Of a stretch of DNA of 53,708 nt, positions 32,944 through 40,035 are shown one piece after another. A program made the position numbers and the translations under genes. Numbering within the stretch: the first letter of the stretch is position 1; each line of letters opens with the position of its first letter. The notes beneath the pieces were generated by a model. It did no database searches, was not told the DNA's origin, and was given only the letters and a program-made list of their open reading frames with translations. The stretch lies in NCBI GenBank assembly GCA_003576945.1, contig QEVC01000004.1:1-53708 (forward strand), in the 5' to 3' direction. This stretch comes from Candidatus Microgenomates bacterium (GTDB lineage: Bacteria > Patescibacteriota > Microgenomatia > UBA1400 > UBA12108).

Positions 32944-34233
32944 CTACCTACCTACACCAATGTATTTAAAACCTGCATTTATAACTGTCTTTGGCTCATA
33001 TTGATTGCGAGTGTCAATAAACACTGGATTTGCTTTCATGAGTTTTGCGAGTCTTGAAAGGTCGAGATTGGTATAGTCGTCCCATTCAACTAGCAAGATA
33101 ATAATATCTGAGTTGGTAGCGGCCGCATAAGCATCTTTAGCATAGACAACTTCTTTGGGTAAAAGTGCTTTTGCCTCATCCACCGCCTGAGGATCAGTGG
33201 CACGAACTGTTGCCCCCTGACTTATTAGCCATGGGATTACAGCCAGGGATGGAGCGACGCGAGTGTCATTGGTATTCTTTTTGAAAGATAGTCCTAACAC
33301 AGCCACTGTTTTATTACTAAATGTTCCGGTCTCTTTTTTAAATTGTTCTAGTTTGCGGCTCACGCGTGCTTCATTGAGTGCATTAATCTTAATAAAGAGA
33401 CTATCTGGTTCGCCGACTTTTTTGGCATACGCCGCGATTTCTTTGACATCTTTAGGAAAACATGAACCACCATAACCGAGACCTGGATACCAATACCCTG
33501 GTCCAATACGACGATCCGCGCCAATTCCCTTAATCACCTCTTCGATGTCGGCACCATTATATTCACAGAGATCGGCGATCTGGTTAATGAAGGTAATACG
33601 GGTTGCTAAATAGTTGTTGGCAGCGTATTTGGTCATCTGAGCACTCTCGGGATTCATGACCAGGATGTTACTAGTTAGTGGCTCGTGCAACTTGGTTAAG
33701 ACTTCTTTAGAAAATTCGTCCTCTACTCCGATTACGACGCGGTCAGGATGGAGGGTATCCTCGACTGCTGTCCCCTCTTTAAGAAATTCGGGAACAGAGG
33801 CCAGATGGAAGACTTTTGTTGTTTTACTGCCAATCAAATCACGAATGTGCTTGTTGGTTCCAGGTGGGACGGTACTCTTAATTACGACAACCGCATTTTC
33901 TTTTAAGTGAGGGGCAATGCTCTCGGCAACACTCTCGACAAAGCGAAGATCAGCAGAGCCATCGGGAGCGCTAGGGGTGCCCACCATGATCATGACAACG
34001 TCAGAGTCGGGCACTGCGAGGTGGTAGTCGGTTGTAAAAGTAAGATTGCCACTCTTTTGAGTATTGATGAGGAGCTCAGATAGACCAGGTTCAAAAAAGG
34101 GTACGACTCCCTCTTTTAATTTGGCGATTTTGTCTTCGTCTATATCTAGGCCGATAACCTTGTTCCCTAGTTTGGCTAAGACTGCGGTCGTTACTACACC
34201 GACAAAACCAGTTCCAATACAGGTAATTTTCAT
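32944..34233 (-). CDS. ugd: UDP-glucose 6-dehydrogenase
   Basis: GTGFVG, VGTP, KSTVPPGT, PEFLKEG and GGSCFPKD motifs. Start moved to ATG 34233. Confidence 0.9.
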   Translation of the reverse strand: MKITCIGTGFVGVVTTAVLAKLGNKVIGLDIDEDKIAKLKEGVVPFFEPGLSELLINTQKSGNLTFTTDYHLAVPDSDVVMIMVGTPSAPDGSADLRFVESVAESIAPHLKENAVVVIKSTVPPGTNKHIRDLIGSKTTKVFHLASVPEFLKEGTAVEDTLHPDRVVIGVEDEFSKEVLTKLHEPLTSNILVMNPESAQMTKYAANNYLATRITFINQIADLCEYNGADIEEVIKGIGADRRIGPGYWYPGLGYGGSCFPKDVKEIAAYAKKVGEPDSLFIKINALNEARVSRKLEQFKKETGTFSNKTVAVLGLSFKKNTNDTRVAPSLAVIPWLISQGATVRATDPQAVDEAKALLPKEVVYAKDAYAAATNSDIIILLVEWDDYTNLDLSRLAKLMKANPVFIDTRNQYEPKTVINAGFKYIGVGR

Positions 34234-34341
34234 ACTCCGATTATGATAGCACCCGAGGCTGTTATTGGCTACGCTTGCCGAAAGCAAATTTCTGTTGATC
34301 CCTATATCGCCTAACGTATGGTGTGTATGCGAGGTTTTGCT

Positions 34342-34560
34342 TTAAATTTTGAGAAATTCCTCGACTGTCATCTCACATTGTCTGAGAATTGCGCGTAAGG
34401 CACCTTTCGGGATATCTCGGCTATGCAAAGCTACCGTAGACGCACGACCATCCGGATGAATAAGTCTAGCGTGACTACCAGTTTGCCGTGAAATCTTAAA
34501 TCCAGCTTTTTCTAACTTCTTGACTACTGCCAGTGGTTTGAGAACTGGGAGTTTGGGCAT
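34342..34560 (-). CDS. hicA: HicA-family toxin (mRNA interferase)
   Basis: LEKAGF..RQTGSH...H..DIPKGALRAILRQ; 72 aa. Confidence 0.9.
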   Translation of the reverse strand: MPKLPVLKPLAVVKKLEKAGFKISRQTGSHARLIHPDGRASTVALHSRDIPKGALRAILRQCEMTVEEFLKI

Positions 34561-34561
34561 A

Positions 34562-34849
34562 CTAAACGGCAAATCTGGTATAGGGAGTAACCTGGAAAGG
34601 TACCTGGGTATTAGTCACCAATTCTTCGTTAGGCTTATCAACGGGAATTTCTTTATGTTCTTTTTGCAAACACTCGACATGAAAGGCGATAGTGCTCTGG
34701 ATATTATCGAGTGCTTCTTGAGGGGTAGGCCCATCGTCGACCACACCTAGAGTGGGACAATATGCAACATAGCACGCTTTTTTGCTACCCAGGCTTTTAT
34801 CAAGGCGTAATATTACACGATAGTCGAGAACGGTCTTTTGTTGTTTCAT
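34562..34849 (-). CDS. hicB: HicB-family antitoxin (short form)
   Basis: YVAYCPTLGVVDDGPTPQEALDNIQSTI...EIP. Start moved to ATG 34849, behind extended -10 TGCTATACT. Confidence 0.85.
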   Translation of the reverse strand: MKQQKTVLDYRVILRLDKSLGSKKACYVAYCPTLGVVDDGPTPQEALDNIQSTIAFHVECLQKEHKEIPVDKPNEELVTNTQVPFQVTPYTRFAV

Positions 34850-35029
34850 AGTACTTGGAGTATAGCAAAAATCGGGAAAATATAAAGGCAAATTGTGGGC
34901 GAACGACTGCAAGGAGTGGAGCCGCATACACGCTAGTTAGGTGACCCGAGCGGAATGTGGCAAAATGCTCCCCTGCCACACGAAGTGAGAGTGCAACGGG
35001 GTGCGAGTGAAACGAGCAAGTTACAAACT

Positions 35030-35488
35030 TTACGATCTATTTATTAGCTCGGACAATGGCGGAACGCCATAGTCCTTTCGTTCTTGGTCTGATGTTTTGG
35101 GATCGTAGTCGCAGATTATTCCTGTGGCATTATTAAATTGGGTTCCGAATTTCTGTTTTTTACCTTGAGATACGAGCCACCTATCCAGACTGGCGGCATA
35201 CAACCACTTCGTTACGTTGGAACCCAATTTAATTGCCTTTTGAGCGTACTCATGCGCCAGTTTGTATGTGGCGGGAACATCAGACCATGAATGCATGAGC
35301 AATAAACAGGCATAATGACAATTCCATATTTCATTTTCATCTAGTGTTGGAAGAATTGTATTTAACACCTCTTGCCGATGAATATCGTTTTGTTTGAGTT
35401 GATCCTCGGATAATTTGCCTTCGTCAAATAGCTGACGATCACTTTTATCACTTAAATACAATTCTTCCAACTGTAAATGGATTGTCAT
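35030..35488 (-). CDS. Hypothetical helical protein (DUF6624-like C-terminal motif), cassette gene
   Basis: 152-aa ORF with LYAASLDRWLVSQGKKQKFGTQF...ERKDYGVPPL; family recalled, not verified. Confidence 0.6.
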   Translation of the reverse strand: MTIHLQLEELYLSDKSDRQLFDEGKLSEDQLKQNDIHRQEVLNTILPTLDENEIWNCHYACLLLMHSWSDVPATYKLAHEYAQKAIKLGSNVTKWLYAASLDRWLVSQGKKQKFGTQFNNATGIICDYDPKTSDQERKDYGVPPLSELINRS

Positions 35489-35510
35489 TATGAGTAAATT
35501 TTGTAATTAC

Positions 35511-35627
35511 GTCTAACGTATGGTGTGTATCTGATGTTTGGCGGACTTATAATGGATTATACTCACAAATCCGCCTGATATGGGAGAACGAGTGCAACGA
35601 AGTGAACCAGATACACGCTAGTTCTAC
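35511..35627 (-). repeat. attC-like site (117 bp, no gene in loop)
   Basis: GTCTAAC-gta-TGGTGTGTATCTG ... CAGATACACGCTA-GTTCTAC; inner GGCGGA/TCCGCC stem. Confidence 0.75.
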
Positions 35628-35722
35628 GACCCGAATGGAGCGAAGTATAATCTGAAAGCTCTTAATACTCCGCGGAATGAGAGTGCAACGCGATCGAGGA
35701 GCGTAGCGACGAAGACGTAATG

Positions 35723-35935
35723 CTACTCTGAGGAAGAACCTTCTTCATGCTCTAGCCAAGGGCCATCTACAATTATCTTGCGAAGGATCCTCATTTTATC
35801 TACGGAGAGTCTTTCTAACTGTTTCAGTTGAGATTTAAACTCCTCGTTAGTCGCTTCACCTTGGTATCTAACATAATCCTGAGCAAGTCTTCCCTCCTTG
35901 GCTAGAGACTCAGCTATGTCCATTAAGTTTGCCAT
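35723..35935 (-). CDS. Small hypothetical helical protein, cassette gene
   Basis: 70-aa ORF with upstream AAAGGAG; fills the space between two sites. Confidence 0.7.
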   Translation of the reverse strand: MANLMDIAESLAKEGRLAQDYVRYQGEATNEEFKSQLKQLERLSVDKMRILRKIIVDGPWLEHEEGSSSE

Positions 35936-35967
35936 ATTTCTTACTCCTTTCTGAGTAGCATTATGTC

Positions 35968-36409
35968 GCCTAACGTACAGCGTGTATGCGAGGTTATTAA
36001 GTTTTTGATACCTCCTCTAATATTTGCCTAAGTTTTCTAGATTCTTTCATGGCCTCCTCCACTTTTTCTTGAGTTATGGATTTGCTAAGCAGGATTGGAA
36101 TAATGCGAGACTGGTGAGCGATGAAACTATCGAGAGGCATAAGGGCACCGCCATGTTTTGACCAAGCCTCCTTTGCACCCTCCCAATTTTTGATTGAGGC
36201 ATCGATCACCAAAGTCTCTCGCAACTTCTTAAATTCATAATGCTTAGAAATCCATACCGTGATAATTGAGGCCATGAAACCTATGAGCGAACCTCCCAAT
36301 CCTGCGATTAATGTAGTAAGCTCTGGTGTCATGATGATAATTGTATCAAAAACTAAATAATCTGGGCGAACGACTGCAAGGAGTGGAGCCGCATACACGC
36401 TAGTTAGAT
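35968..36409 (-). repeat. Expanded attC-like site (442 bp) enclosing a 111-aa ORF
   Basis: GCCTAAC-gta-CAGCGTGTATGCG (35968-35990) pairs with CGCATACACGCTA-GTTAGAT (36390-36409). Confidence 0.7.
35997..36332 (-). CDS. Hypothetical protein with N-terminal TM helix
   Basis: MTPELTTLIAGLGGSLIGFMASIITVWI. Start moved to ATG 36332, 7 nt after extended -10 TGATACAAT. Confidence 0.7.
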   Translation of the reverse strand: MTPELTTLIAGLGGSLIGFMASIITVWISKHYEFKKLRETLVIDASIKNWEGAKEAWSKHGGALMPLDSFIAHQSRIIPILLSKSITQEKVEEAMKESRKLRQILEEVSKT

Positions 36410-36507
36410 GACCTGAGCGCGAGGTGATATGATCCCCCGATCACCTCGAGCGAGAGTGCAACGCGGTGCGGAGTGAAACGGAGCAAGTTAGCAACTCTCA
36501 CTAAAAA

Positions 36508-36852
36508 TTAGTTAATCTTTTCGAAGCCGTTGAAGTGAGGCTTATCGTCGTTGAATACTTCTATAACTTTATATCTTCCTTTTGTCCAGACCTCGCCAGC
36601 TTCTAGATAGTGAGTAGCGTCGAGGATGATAATACTAGCTTTGGGACGGGATAAAACTTGATTGCCTTGTGTCTCTAGGAGCGGAAGTTCGCCGTGCAAC
36701 CAATACAACCTCTGATCTTTTTTGAGAAAGGAATAGGTTTGGCCAACCTCTAACTTTTCGGGGATACATTCCTCTATTTTTCGGTTGCCGGCATGAAATT
36801 CCGCGACATTGCGTAAAGCGAGGTCTGGATTGTATTCAACGACGATACCCAT
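36508..36852 (-). CDS. Hypothetical protein, cassette gene
   Basis: 114-aa ORF; TATAAT just upstream; enclosed by a perfect 14-bp inverted repeat. Confidence 0.75.
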   Translation of the reverse strand: MGIVVEYNPDLALRNVAEFHAGNRKIEECIPEKLEVGQTYSFLKKDQRLYWLHGELPLLETQGNQVLSRPKASIIILDATHYLEAGEVWTKGRYKVIEVFNDDKPHFNGFEKIN

Positions 36853-36898
36853 ATATGTTGATTATAACCCTTCCTTGATTGTGAGAGTTGCTAATTTC

Positions 36899-37018
36899 AT
36901 CTAACGGGCACTGTATATCTGACGTTGGACGGGTTGATAATTGAGTTTATTGTACCCTAACCCGTCCAATGTGGGTCGAAGGAGTGCAACGACTGAGCCA
37001 GATATACAGTAGTTGTAC
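36899..37018 (-). repeat. attC-like site (120 bp, no gene in loop)
   Basis: ATCTAAC-ggg-CACTGTATATCTG ... CAGATATACAGTA-GTTGTAC; inner 14-bp stem at 36922-36935/36959-36972. Confidence 0.75.
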
Positions 37019-37248
37019 GACCCGAAGCCCACACGCTAAAATCACTCAACTTAAAGCGGGTGGGCTGAGAGTGCAACGAGGTCGAACGACTGCAAGGAGT
37101 GAGATGTCTATTTGTTCCTTAATTCAGTTCGCGCGCGCTTTTACATGTACCCTGTATTCATTTTCAGCTCAGTGTAGAGGGGTTAGGGGTGAATACACTG
37201 AGCTGAATGCTCCCCTAGTCTCCAACTCTGGTGGATATGTCCTATAAC

Positions 37249-37277
37249 TTGACAAAAAGCTATATATCTGGTATGCT
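37249..37277 (+). promoter_or_regulatory. Sigma70 promoter TTGACA-17-TATGCT with extended TG
   Basis: Consensus -35 and 17-bp spacer; both boxes are conserved in copy 2 while the spacer varies. Confidence 0.8.
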
Positions 37278-37284
37278 ACCAAAT

Positions 37285-37475
37285 GTTGTAGTAGTCTGCC
37301 ATGCTGCAAATAGATTGCTATTTCCCAGCGTGAATGAACCAACTATAACTGCACCTTAAAATGCGGAAGTTATCTCCTTTGCCAAGTGGGTAATTTTGTG
37401 GATATTGTCGTGTCTACAAAAATACCCATTTGGGTAGAAAAACGTTTTTCTATTCTGTTCTACAAAAGGAGATAT
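37285..37475 (+). ncRNA. Putative structured leader RNA, copy 1
   Basis: Nested stems GTTGTAGT/ACTATAAC, CATGCTG/CAGCGTG and AAATAG/CTATTT; long hairpin 37382-37433; anti-SD TATCTCCTTT. Confidence 0.55.
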
Positions 37476-37478
37476 ACC

Positions 37479-38063
37479 ATGTTCAAGAAAGCCCCCCGTA
37501 AGGAAGATGGATTGGATCTGTTTGCTCGCGCACTCGGAGCCAAATCCGGATCGGACGCCATTCTCAGACAAGAAGCTGACGGTCAACGCTCGTTCGTAGG
37601 TAGCGACACGCTCCCAACCGAAATGAGTGCTGATGATCGCACTGCTCTCGAAGCCGCAGGCGTTGTGTTCGGCGAAGTTGTGCCAGGCGATGACTTGTTC
37701 CAGTATGTTCAGCTCCCCGCTGGATGGACCAAGCGTAGCACGAGCCACTCGATGCACAATGACCTTCTCGATGAGAAAGGTCGCAAGCGTGCAGGCATTT
37801 TCTACAAAGCCGCGTTCTACGACCGCAACGCTCACCTCTACTGTGTGCGCCGCTTCGGCATCAACCTGGACTATGACCAGCTCGAGAATGGGATTGTGCT
37901 TGTGCAGGTGACTGACTGCGATGAAGTGGTTTACTCCACTAATCCTGTTCCGTTCGAAAAGAGCGAAGAGCGCCTTGCACGTGAACAGGCATTCGAAGTC
38001 GCCAAGTCCTGGCTGAACAGCAACTATCCCGAATGGGAAAACGCCGCCGCCTACTGGGACTAA
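37479..38063 (+). CDS. Hypothetical, probably phage-type protein (cargo 1, 194 aa)
   Basis: Strong SD AAAAGGAG. LPAGW...HSMH..LLDEKGRKRAGIFYKAAFYDR is recalled from phage hypothetical proteins (unverified). GC is higher than in the flanks. Confidence 0.75.
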   Translation: MFKKAPRKEDGLDLFARALGAKSGSDAILRQEADGQRSFVGSDTLPTEMSADDRTALEAAGVVFGEVVPGDDLFQYVQLPAGWTKRSTSHSMHNDLLDEKGRKRAGIFYKAAFYDRNAHLYCVRRFGINLDYDQLENGIVLVQVTDCDEVVYSTNPVPFEKSEERLAREQAFEVAKSWLNSNYPEWENAAAYWD

Positions 38064-38095
38064 TTCCTCACCTTCCGCAAGGTGCAAAACGCTCG

Positions 38096-38148
38096 ACCCC
38101 TCCGGTCACGTCCACGTAAGTGGAAAGATTGGAGGGGTGTTTTGTATC
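38096..38148 (+). terminator. Terminator-like hairpin, copy 1
   Basis: ACCCCTCC...GGAGGGGT followed by GTTTTGTAT. Confidence 0.55.
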
Positions 38149-38352
38149 TATTAACTTTCGCTATACAAAGTGGCAATTTTAGCGCTTTAATTAACAAAAG
38201 TCGCCGTAGGCGACACCTCATCCCCCTCTAAAAATAATATACCTTTACATGTACTCTGTATTCCATTTCAGCTCAGTGTAGAGGGGTTAGGGGTGAATAC
38301 ACTGAGCTGAATGCTACCCATACCATCACCTCTGGTGGATATGTCCTATAAC

Positions 38353-38381
38353 TTGACAAATGACTACATATCTGGTATGCT
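38353..38381 (+). promoter_or_regulatory. Sigma70 promoter TTGACA-17-TATGCT
   Basis: Same as 37249-37277, offset by 1104 bp. Confidence 0.8.
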
Positions 38382-38388
38382 ACGAGAT

Positions 38389-38570
38389 GTTGTAGTAGTC
38401 TGCCATGCTGCAAATAGTTTGCTATTTCCCAGCGTGAAAGAACCCACTATAACTGCACATTAAAATGCGGAAGTTATCTCCTTCTATTGTGGGTAGCACT
38501 TTTGGTATCAAAAGTGGTACTAAGTGTGCTACTCACAAGTAGTGAAACCCCAACCCACCCAAAAGGAGTA
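38389..38570 (+). ncRNA. Putative structured leader RNA, copy 2
   Basis: Same stems as copy 1; a hairpin of different sequence at the equivalent place (38487-38538); CTCCTT anti-SD. Confidence 0.55.
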
Positions 38571-38577
38571 CTGAAAA

Positions 38578-38886
38578 ATGAACGATAAAGTTATTACCCT
38601 CCCGAGCGCTGATGAAATGATTGCTCGCCTGATGAAAGTTCAGGATGATGAACTCGCCCAGTCACTGTACAGGAACGTTGCGCAGCGTGCTGGCGAGGAG
38701 AAGGTTGCGGCTGGCATCATTATGATGTTCAGTCTTGGCATCTACGATGTCTGCCAGGGATACCCTCCCATGATGCAGAACCTTCTCTCCTACAACATCC
38801 CCGCGTGGGTCGACGCCCTTGTTGATGACAAGGAAGTTGCCGATGCGGCTAAGGCTTTCTGGAAGGAAGCTACGAGCAAGAAATAA
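38578..38886 (+). CDS. Hypothetical protein (cargo 2, 102 aa)
   Basis: SD AAAAGGAG at 38561-38568; no similarity to cargo 1. Confidence 0.75.
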   Translation: MNDKVITLPSADEMIARLMKVQDDELAQSLYRNVAQRAGEEKVAAGIIMMFSLGIYDVCQGYPPMMQNLLSYNIPAWVDALVDDKEVADAAKAFWKEATSKK

Positions 38887-38984
38887 GTCTTCGCGAGGTC
38901 AAATATTGAAACCACTAGCTGGGCGACGTAAGTCGACGGGTTACTCCGTTATCAGTTATACTTCCGCAAAAGAAGTGCAGACAT

Positions 38985-39054
38985 CCCCTCCGAATAGTCG
39001 GAAATTGTTGCGTAAGTTGCAACGTTTTTGATTATAGGAGGGGTGTTTTGTATC
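38985..39054 (+). terminator. Terminator-like hairpin, copy 2
   Basis: CCCCTCC...GGAGGGG followed by TGTTTTGTATC. Confidence 0.55.
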
Positions 39055-39168
39055 ACTTTAGTTAATGAAAGTCGCCGTAGGCGACACCTCATCCCCCTCT
39101 AAAAATAATATACCTTTACATGTAATGTAAAAGCGCGCGCGAACATATAAATAGTACAAATAGATATC

Positions 39169-39207
39169 GTACAACTAGTGTGTATGCGAATAATGTTCGC
39201 ATACACA
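39169..39207 (-). other. attI-like recombination site
   Basis: Core GTTGTAC on - strand, next to a perfect 12-bp hairpin TGTGTATGCGAA-taatg-TTCGCATACACA, 21 bp upstream of the integrase start. Confidence 0.65.
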
Positions 39208-39228
39208 GACATTTGGTAGAATATTAGC

Positions 39229-40035
39229 ATGTGGAAAGAACGATTACAACTATATATGCAGGCTCGTGCATACAGCAGACGAACCATATCTGCGTATATT
39301 GATTCTGTCGATCGGATAGTCAAGAAAACGAGAAAAGATCCAGCTAATATAGATGAGCAAACGCTAGAAAAATACCTGAGCCAACTATACAGCTCTGGCA
39401 TGTCGCCCTATACCCTCAACCAGCACCACATGGCGTTAAAATTACTTAAGACTGCGGTACTTGGTCAGTCGTGGGACCCTAAGTTTGGCTATGCCAAAAG
39501 ACCAAAGAAAATCCCCGTTACACTAACTAAGAATGAGATCTCAAAATTAATAGATTCGACTGCTAATCCAAAACATCAGTTAATACTGGCTCTCGCATAT
39601 GGCGCAGGCCTACGGGTCAGCGAAATAATCGCCCTTAAAGTAATGGATATCGATTTTGAGAACATGCGGGTTGTAGTACGGAGTGGCAAAGGACAAAAAG
39701 ATCGAACGACAGTCCTCCCTGATAAGTTAGTCACCACTCTCAATTCGTATCTCGCAGGACGCAAAAAAGACGACCATGTCTTTTTGAGTGAGCGAGGTGG
39801 GACACTAACTACCAGGACGCTACAAGCGATATTTGCTAAATCGCTAAATCGTGCCGCGATTAATAAGGCCGCCACCTTTCACAGTCTCAGACACAGTTTT
39901 GCCACTCACCTCCTTGAGCAGGGTGTAGATATTAGGTATATCCAGACACTGCTCGGCCATGCTAGTATTACGACAACTCAGATTTATACTCATGTTGCGA
40001 GTACTGCACTACATAATATCAGGAGCCCATTATGA
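39229..40035 (+). CDS. IntI-like tyrosine recombinase (268 aa) lacking the integron-specific insert
   Basis: YGAGLRVSE (R), GKGQKDR (K), HSLRHSFATHLLE (HxxR), LLGH, TTQIYTHV (Y); C-terminal RSPL as in IntI. Confidence 0.9.
   Translation: MWKERLQLYMQARAYSRRTISAYIDSVDRIVKKTRKDPANIDEQTLEKYLSQLYSSGMSPYTLNQHHMALKLLKTAVLGQSWDPKFGYAKRPKKIPVTLTKNEISKLIDSTANPKHQLILALAYGAGLRVSEIIALKVMDIDFENMRVVVRSGKGQKDRTTVLPDKLVTTLNSYLAGRKKDDHVFLSERGGTLTTRTLQAIFAKSLNRAAINKAATFHSLRHSFATHLLEQGVDIRYIQTLLGHASITTTQIYTHVASTALHNIRSPL

Follow-up and report, generated by a model that had tools for sequence, protein, structure and literature searches.

The window analysed here spans positions 1 to 53,708 of contig QEVC01000004.1 from a Candidatus Microgenomates bacterium (assembly GCA_003576945.1, termed G000 below; 33 contigs with a total of 825,322 bases). 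In this small-genome bacterium an integron-like cassette array (34309-39208) is flanked by the genes for UDP-glucose dehydrogenase (32944-34287) and a tyrosine recombinase (39229-40035). Its open reading frames (ORFs) are separated by attC recombination sites, and beside the core of each of four sites the + strand carries a conserved extension that consists of a 7-nt spacer (GACCCGA or GACCTGA), a hairpin of variable sequence and an invariant 12-mer, GAGAGTGCAACG. The hairpin contains a -10-like hexamer at a fixed distance from the core. In the usual description, integron cassettes lack promoters and attC sites serve solely as structures for recombination. Judged from sequence comparison, the hexamer may well belong to a genuine extended -10 promoter that has no -35 element, acts in duplex DNA, and is oriented against the cassettes, in the direction of the gene for the XerA-like recombinase.

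Read on the - strand, the repeats between the ORFs show R'' (xxxxAAC), an unpaired spacer, L'', a variable middle, L' and R', which is the anatomy of attC; the + strand is therefore the bottom strand. All four R' boxes (GTTAGGC, GTTAGAC, GTTAGGC and GTTAGAT) fit the consensus GTTRRRY, and two of the four R'' boxes (ACCTAAC, GTAGAAC, ATCTAAC and GTACAAC) fit RYYYAAC in full, both consensus sequences being taken from PMC11014356. The L boxes are paired in DNA folds of two of the sites, with energies of -41.5 (+) versus -34.6 (-) kcal/mol for site a and -20.1 (+) versus -17.9 (-) kcal/mol for site c. The boxes, the unpaired spacer, the foldable bottom strand and the position 3' of ORFs are shared with canonical attC sites, and the tandem array beside a divergently read tyrosine recombinase and the presence or absence of cassettes at the AAC/GTT core are shared with canonical integrons. 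The sites differ from canonical ones in carrying a further conserved stretch beyond R'' (GACCCGA, hairpin, GAGAGTGCAACG and tail) and, inside the site, a 27-nt one-sided box, and in having whole genes within L''/L' in two of the four, namely ORF 35997-36398 in site b and hicA with the hicB-like ORF in site d. Coordinates are collected in Table 1.

Table 1. Features of the cassette array, in window coordinates
Feature	Coordinates	Strand	Description
Unit 1	34936-34998	+	Core GTTAGGT 34936-34942, GACCCGA, hairpin Y1 34956-34980, GAGAGTGCAACG; CAAAAT 34961-34966 preceded by TGg; predicted start ~34973
Unit 2	35621-35690	+	Core GTTCTAC 35621-35627, GACCCGA, hairpin Y2 35640-35673, GAGAGTGCAACG; TATAAT 35646-35651; predicted start ~35658
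Unit 3	36403-36463	+	Core GTTAGAT 36403-36409, GACCTGA, hairpin Y3 36417-36451, GAGAGTGCAACG; TATGAT 36428-36433 preceded by TGa; predicted start ~36440
Unit 4	37012-37078	+	Core GTTGTAC 37012-37018, GACCCGA, hairpin Y4 37026-37066, GAGAGTGCAACG; TAAAAT 37037-37042; predicted start ~37049
Long attC d	34309-34942	-	L''/L' enclose hicA and hicB-like ORF; R' GTTAGGC closes array beside UDP-glucose dehydrogenase gene
Compact attC c	35511-35627	-	R'' GTAGAAC, L'', 27-nt box with GTTGCAC, hairpin X 35540-35575, L', R' GTTAGAC
Long attC b	35968-36409	-	L'' near 36391-36399 and L' near 35978-35990 enclose ORF 35997-36398
Compact attC a	36899-37018	-	R'' GTACAAC, L'', box, hairpin X 36927-36967, L', R' GTTAGAT
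hicA	34342-34572	-	Array ORF
hicB-like ORF	34562-34927	-	Array ORF
Cassette ORF	35030-35488	-	Antisense to hairpin hexamers
Cassette ORF	35723-35935	-	Antisense to hairpin hexamers
Array ORF	35997-36398 as listed	-	Likely start ATG 36333, after TGaTACAAT
Cassette ORF	36508-36852	-	TATAAT, 6 nt, ATG (leaderless-type); antisense to hairpin hexamers
Cassette-bracketing inverted repeats	35714-35731/35950-35967; 36485-36501/36881-36897; 35991-36011/36343-36363		
attI-like site	39169-39208	+	GTACAAC core and 9-bp hairpin GTGTATGCG / CGCATACAC, 9-nt loop
Recombinase promoter-like motif	39214-39222	+	TGgTAGAAT, 6 nt, then ATG 39229
Tyrosine recombinase	39229-40035	+	268 aa, XerA-like; same strand as hairpin hexamers

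The initial annotation placed the hexamer exactly 18 nt after each 7-nt GTT core, at the stem/loop edge of four hairpins with differing stems, and described an invariant GAGAGTGCAACG behind each. The spacing holds to the nucleotide in all four units, DNA folds bear out the position at the stem/loop edge, and GAGAGTGCAACG occurs exactly at 34987, 35679, 36452 and 37067, always on the + strand; the 12-mer is absent elsewhere in the genome. The stems of Y1 to Y4 are unrelated in sequence, and the predicted stem of hairpin 2 reaches 3 nt into the hexamer. Three of the four hexamers conform to TAnnnT, keeping A2 and T6. With the base composition of the window, nAnnnT has a chance of 0.0785 of falling at one fixed place, which gives ~4e-5 for all four. 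TG is present at -15/-14 in two units (TGg at Y1, TGa at Y3). Frames opened by the GTG of GAGAGTGCAACG run for 6-18 codons and are not conserved, and a small ORF at this position was rejected.

Homologous units were gathered from public genomes and metagenomes by their two flanks (GACCnGA and GAGnGTGCAAn) with a free gap between them; counts from these scans are counts among the matches listed, and many of the genome hits are chance hits. At least 254 loci, together with the window, yielded at least 125 unique units with the core and both flanks. As the units were selected by both flanks, this set does not allow flank conservation to be judged. Measured from the core, TAnnnT lies at an offset of 18 in 54 of the units, 17 in 15, 19 in 7, 20 in 9 and 23 in 12. 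Clustering of the hairpins at 0.75 similarity gave 55 clusters, which are not independent lineages; 31 have TAnnnT at 17-20, 2 only at 23 and 5 elsewhere, and 17 have none. In 2000 letter-shuffled sets of hairpins, the number of clusters at 17-20 averaged 4.84 (sd 2.03) and never exceeded 12. The spacing, which the initial annotation had proposed to check in homologous arrays, is thus kept. It is also strand-specific, with 22 of the 55 clusters at one + offset and at most 4 at any - offset.

A position weight matrix of the hexamer was made from 27 of the 31 cluster representatives, the other four falling outside the 41-nt frame. At hexamer positions 4 and 5, neither of which was used for selection, A occurs in 19 and 18 of the 27, and upstream G is found at -14 in 20 and T at -15 in 14. 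Across all listed units, eight weaker hexamer types (TAAAGT, TACAGT, TATCAT, TAAACT, TAAGAT, TATTCT, TAGGAT and TATGAT; 14 units) are all accompanied by TG, and other weak hexamers (TATCCT, TACACT and TATTGT) are not. The idea that the hairpin is a slot that sometimes holds a gene was dropped; one candidate was seen among all the listed loci, and its right flank had diverged.

The stem is well supported by covariation. In the 22 representatives with an offset of 18, the seven positions up to and including the first T of the hexamer pair with their mirror positions in 16-21 cases, with 1-5 pair types at each position, and four of the positions lie far above permuted partners (e.g. 18 versus 7.9). 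The hexamer T pairs with A in 21 of the 22, and A2 is paired in 6, the same number as under permutation, so the stem stops between -12 and -11. Among 29 hairpins, the innermost enclosing pair falls on T in 17 and on A in 9. Complementarity of at least 6/7 in this register is found in 24 of the 31 hairpins and in 2 of 120 ordinary promoters of G000. The fixed 18-nt distance from the core follows from this architecture, because it is the sum of GACCCGA (7 nt), the linker (5 nt) and the arm (6 nt), and no -35 element is needed to account for the spacing. Asymmetry of folding between the strands is weak (mean dG difference -0.35; + more stable in 37 of 55 clusters, - in 14). G-T wobble pairs number 3 on + versus 9 on -, and the energy and wobble test is weak or uninformative.

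The same signal appears in front of ordinary genes of this genome. In G000, TAnnnT peaks 6 nt before the ATG, where it is present in 118 of 747 ORFs of at least 120 aa, against 12-49 at neighbouring distances. The peak appears typical of leaderless genes that are transcribed from a -10 element. Such leaderless-type sites often carry TG before the hexamer. At 120 sites of the form TAnnnT, 6 nt, ATG, no -35 signal was found and composition is flat from -30 to -9. The profile of these 120 sites, all from G000, was compared with that of the 31 hairpins. T at -15 is found in 51% of the genome promoters and 48% of the hairpin hexamers, G at -14 in 57% and 74%, A at hexamer position 4 in 62% and 74%, A at position 5 in 63% and 68%, and C at position 5 in 25% and 23%. 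The hairpin motif is thus a putative extended -10 element (TGnTAnAAT) whose profile matches the promoter signal of G000. Its form and its A2 and T6 are those of extended -10 promoters (TGnTATAAT, no -35, leaderless mRNAs), as seen before 118-120 genes of G000, and the T and G at -15/-14, which some of the hairpins carry, resemble theirs. The hairpin sites differ from these leaderless promoters in two respects: the upstream half of the motif is locked in a stem, and there is no ATG at +7, so that the product of a hairpin promoter would be non-coding.

One proposal of the initial annotation was an antisense promoter that used the core as its -35. The antisense promoter is favoured by the conservation pattern of the hexamer, which is that of a sigma-70 -10 element, and by the match to the genome profile. 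The core was rejected as a -35, as it agrees with TTGACA at only ~3-4 of 6 positions and the promoters of G000 themselves have no -35. A promoter scan of the window listed none of the four hexamer sites. A search of the open-access literature for leaderless promoters in Patescibacteria found no description of them.

According to their record titles, the listed units come mostly from Patescibacteria (Shapirobacteria, Woesebacteria, Gottesmanbacteria, Roizmanbacteria, Peribacteria), with some from DPANN-type archaea. All taxon labels are the titles given by depositors. Metagenome-assembled genomes (MAGs) titled 'uncultured Pseudomonadales' or 'Gammaproteobacteria' (loci L002, L044, L055 and L097; genomes G007 and G010) are only ~0.8 Mb in size, and these titles are probably wrong. 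The core-GACCCGA ... GAGAGTGCAACG flanks also occur in archaeal-labelled MAGs (titles Nanoarchaeota, Woesearchaeota and 'Methanosarcinales'; loci L014, L015, L031, L122 and L255-L280), which points to one attC family common to both domains. Cross-domain sharing has been reported for archaeal integrons in general (PMC9668308).

When five archaeal-labelled genomes were anchored on the 12-mer, 12 unique units were obtained, where the exact pattern had given one each. Seven of the 12 have only 7-17 nt between the flanks, for example GCGAAGC (2/12), and one has TAnnnT at 17-20, the poor match TATTGT. In five bacterial genomes of Candidate Phyla Radiation size, the hexamer is at 17-18 in 10 of 11 units, and the remaining unit is GCGAAGC; these domain samples are small and not phylogenetically independent. 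GCGNAGC is a DNA mini-hairpin of extraordinary stability (PMC13037366). The non-promoter form of the hairpin position is thus a short linker or a small AT-rich hairpin, seen in the archaeal-labelled genomes and in one bacterial unit. The presence of the hexamer in bacterial and rarely in archaeal-labelled units fits a signal for a bacterial sigma factor. The common part seems to be the flanks with a short linker or small hairpin, and the longer stem with a promoter-bearing loop a probable addition in one bacterial lineage. The archaeal-labelled units, which mostly lack the hairpin as well as the hexamer, allow the part that serves recombination to be set against the part that would serve transcription.

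The recombinase lies on the hexamer side of the array. Its ATG follows TGgTAGAAT by 6 nt, and its mRNA is therefore probably leaderless. The protein scores 225.7 bits against NCBIfam NF040815 (XerA / 'integron integrase'), above the cut-off of 220, and 215.3 bits against TIGR02249 (integron integrase), below the cut-off of 265, the latter match being split in two stretches; it appears, for this reason, to lack the IntI-specific insert, and differs in this from the recombinases of canonical integrons. Orthologs are encoded on the hexamer strand downstream of the units in G000, G007 (88% identity), G008 and G006, and on another contig in G009; none was found in G010. The recombinase is thus on the hexamer side in G000 and three of the five other genomes. 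In a crude count over listed loci with at least two units, 55 ORFs are on the - strand and 28 on the + strand, several of the latter being 60-80-aa frames across the repeats. As the ORFs mostly oppose the hexamer strand and the recombinase is downstream, hairpin transcripts would run antisense through the cassette's own ORF, towards the recombinase. The attI-like site, ~20 nt before the TGgTAGAAT of the recombinase, is one end of a cassette presence/absence joint: in public run X16 one contig links 36902 to 39173, skipping 2270 bases, with AAC common to both sides. This joint (one run, one contig) indicates a form without the first cassette, cut at the cores.

The motif, its register in the stem, the covariation, the strand specificity and the match to the promoter profile are observed in the DNA; from them we infer initiation, direction of use and function. 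On the bottom (+) strand of each cassette the attC extension presents, in order, the core, GACCCGA, the hairpin and GAGAGTGCAACG. The 5' arm of the hairpin ends in (T)GnT and the loop begins with AnnnT, the two together forming the putative extended -10. RNA polymerase would open the loop region in duplex DNA and start ~7 nt after the hexamer, and transcription of the + strand would pass antisense through the ORF of the cassette towards the recombinase. The likely effect would be convergent transcription that damps or insulates cassette expression (an 'array silencer'), and the hairpin of the first cassette could contribute further transcription in the direction of the recombinase. The position of the hairpin is part of the extension of the recombination site.

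Related arrangements are known. In Vibrionaceae, an antisense promoter in a gene-less integron cassette silences the upstream cassette (PMC11014356), and ORF-less cassettes with antisense promoters in Treponema are summarised in PMC8876359. These array silencers resemble the present case in having a sigma-70-type promoter in a cassette array that is directed against the ORFs and towards intI. Their promoters occur at varying places inside certain cassettes that carry no gene. The hexamers described here belong to ORF-bearing cassettes; they keep to one position in the conserved accessory hairpin next to the attC core, and do so throughout an attC family. Group IIC-attC introns with outward promoters (PMC3001079) likewise bring promoters to attC sites, but their promoters belong to the inserted intron, and there is no intron here. 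No earlier description of a conserved promoter in an attC hairpin was found in the open-access literature searched, which yielded only cassette-borne and intron-borne promoters. The family thus places a promoter-like element at a fixed site beside the core in small-genome bacteria, for which almost nothing is known of gene control. If the hairpin promoter fires, each cassette brings its own backward-facing promoter, which would change how expression and silencing in such arrays are read.

Several points weigh against a promoter that acts in duplex DNA. In one of the four hexamers of the window, CAAAAT, the first T is missing, with A2 and T6 kept. The 17 clusters without any TAnnnT imply that the hexamer is not essential to the site, and TG beside weaker hexamers is not significant when counted by cluster (6/11 versus 7/20). 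The promoter profile comes from G000 alone, and the hairpins come from many organisms. The first bases of the two RNA contigs over the cassette ORF 35723-35935, 35589 and 35630, are to the left of the predicted + start (35658), and a + start at 35658 alone cannot explain these contigs. The proposed silencing or insulation is likewise something that we infer. Lastly, a duplex promoter has no need of an exact register with the stem end at -12, which is better explained by structure-dependent use. One such use, possible but doubtful, is a promoter or primer signal on the folded, single-stranded bottom strand, which takes up in altered form the priming signal of the initial annotation. The 7-bp stem would hold TGnT (-18 to -12) as duplex and leave A-11 to T-7 as single strand, a ready fork junction for sigma; polymerase would bind the folded attC extension, with the RNA serving as a primer or as sense-direction RNA, or with the fold being held in place. 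This would account for the stem ending at the hexamer T and for the complementarity seen in most hairpins and hardly ever in ordinary promoters. The hexamer is moreover on the bottom strand of attC, the one that folds during integron recombination, and GCGAAGC in two archaeal-labelled units and one bacterial unit points to a fold at the DNA level. However, loops of only ~10-20 nt would serve as non-template and template alike, the strand asymmetry of folding is weak, and the model of integron insertion is not known to need priming of the cassette strand. The initial annotation had likened the hairpins to ssoA and Frpo. ssoA is marked by conserved RS-B and CS-6 elements. Frpo of conjugative plasmids (Masai and Arai 1997, as described in PMC9849209) is comparable in that it couples a promoter-like signal with a hairpin, on a strand that may be single-stranded, but its stem-loop rebuilds both the -35 and the -10 box. 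This defining build is absent here, where a -35 is lacking, the stem has 7 bp and positions 2-6 of the hexamer fall in the loop, and the likeness is not supported. A structure-gated polymerase site is similarly doubtful. When a cassette is excised, replicating or imported, its folded bottom strand would offer sigma a pre-melted promoter and so link attC folding to RNA synthesis; second-strand priming or sense RNA from a single-stranded cassette would result, and opening by polymerase could nucleate extrusion of the hairpin. The exact register of stem and -10 offers in any case a directly testable link from DNA folding to polymerase binding.

The start of the loop could instead be recognised by the XerA-like recombinase, or by an accessory protein, as part of an enlarged attC, with the -10 likeness as a by-product. 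The hairpin does lie between two strongly conserved flanks; GTGCAAC resembles the bottom-strand R' box and pairs with the core in the fold of unit 4; behind the inner hairpin X there is a second copy, GAGTGCAAC, in the manner of accessory binding sites; and other loop sequences, such as TTTATTATATGTAAAA, are kept in other sub-families. We nevertheless hold this explanation to be improbable, since the match to the promoter profile extends to minor preferences (C at position 5 in 23-25%, T and G at -15/-14) and since arrays contain units without the hairpin, so that the loop is dispensable for the site. An element acting in RNA, either a 3' stabiliser or terminator in sense mRNA or part of a + strand small RNA begun upstream (e.g. 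at TAyAAT of hairpin X), appears quite unlikely. The metatranscriptome runs X18 and X19 (one sample; contigs only, without strand or ends) do give low-depth RNA contigs over hicA, 35589-35976 / 35630-35953 and 36553-36736, those at 35589-35976 and 35630-35953 passing through hairpin Y2 and the core, and the flanking housekeeping genes have no RNA cover in these runs. Sense mRNA through the hairpin, or + strand RNA begun further left, would explain the contigs over 35723-35935, and the RNA contigs neither support nor refute initiation at the hexamers. The + strand linkers are also purine-rich (acgga / ggagt), as in many structured RNAs, and the inner hairpin X has its own + strand hexamer upstream. 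An RNA element would, however, leave TAnnnT with its preceding TG unexplained; no run of T follows the hairpin on either strand, there is no informative excess of wobble pairs, and an Rfam scan of 33500-40000 returned no family (best E-value 1.3, to miRNA models). Chance alone is hardly credible. Loops are AT-rich, AT-rich loops often hold -10-like words, and 28 of the 55 listed clusters have some TAnnnT on the opposite strand, but the position is fixed and specific to one strand, and the number of clusters at 17-20 is far beyond the maximum reached by shuffling.

The inner hairpin X of the compact sites also carries hexamers. In hairpin X at 35540-35575 the + strand TATAAT (35548-35553) opens the loop, and ATTATA (35556-35561) reads TATAAT on the - strand; in that at 36927-36967, GATAAT (36936-36941) is at the loop start on the + strand. 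Two nucleotides past the + hexamer there are words of the ATTATA/ATTGTA type, which are TAnAAT on the - strand and face the next cassette. The second box, GAGTGCAAC, comes after the inner hairpin. This pattern recurs less sharply in relatives: it could be parsed in 29 of 65 listed clusters, with a + hexamer in 21, a - hexamer in 23 and both within 0-4 nt in 11, and the offsets are broad.

Each of three cassette ORFs is flanked by its own inverted repeat of 17-21 nt (89-94% complementary), one arm of which directly adjoins the R' core. Core-like words occur within the arms, reading TTAGCAAC on the + strand, equivalent to GTTGCTAA on the - strand. The repeat in attC b is a further 21-nt inverted repeat (35991-36011 / 36343-36363), and one public run has a contig joining 35995 to 36359, so a form of this site without the inner ORF may exist.

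The first cassette is a 2.3-kb piece with 44-nt inverted repeats at its ends (37103-37146 / 39125-39168) and two direct repeats of 240 nt (37140-37379 and 38244-38483) that share 91% identity. Both contain TTGACA, 17 nt, and TATGCT with a preceding TG, in each case ahead of a + strand ORF. These two ORFs, 37386-38063 and 38578-38886, gave no Pfam or NCBIfam match. They are by far the best covered in the RNA runs, with depths of 155.7/86.4 and 121.3/67, respectively, as compared with at most 4.6 for the other cassette contigs.

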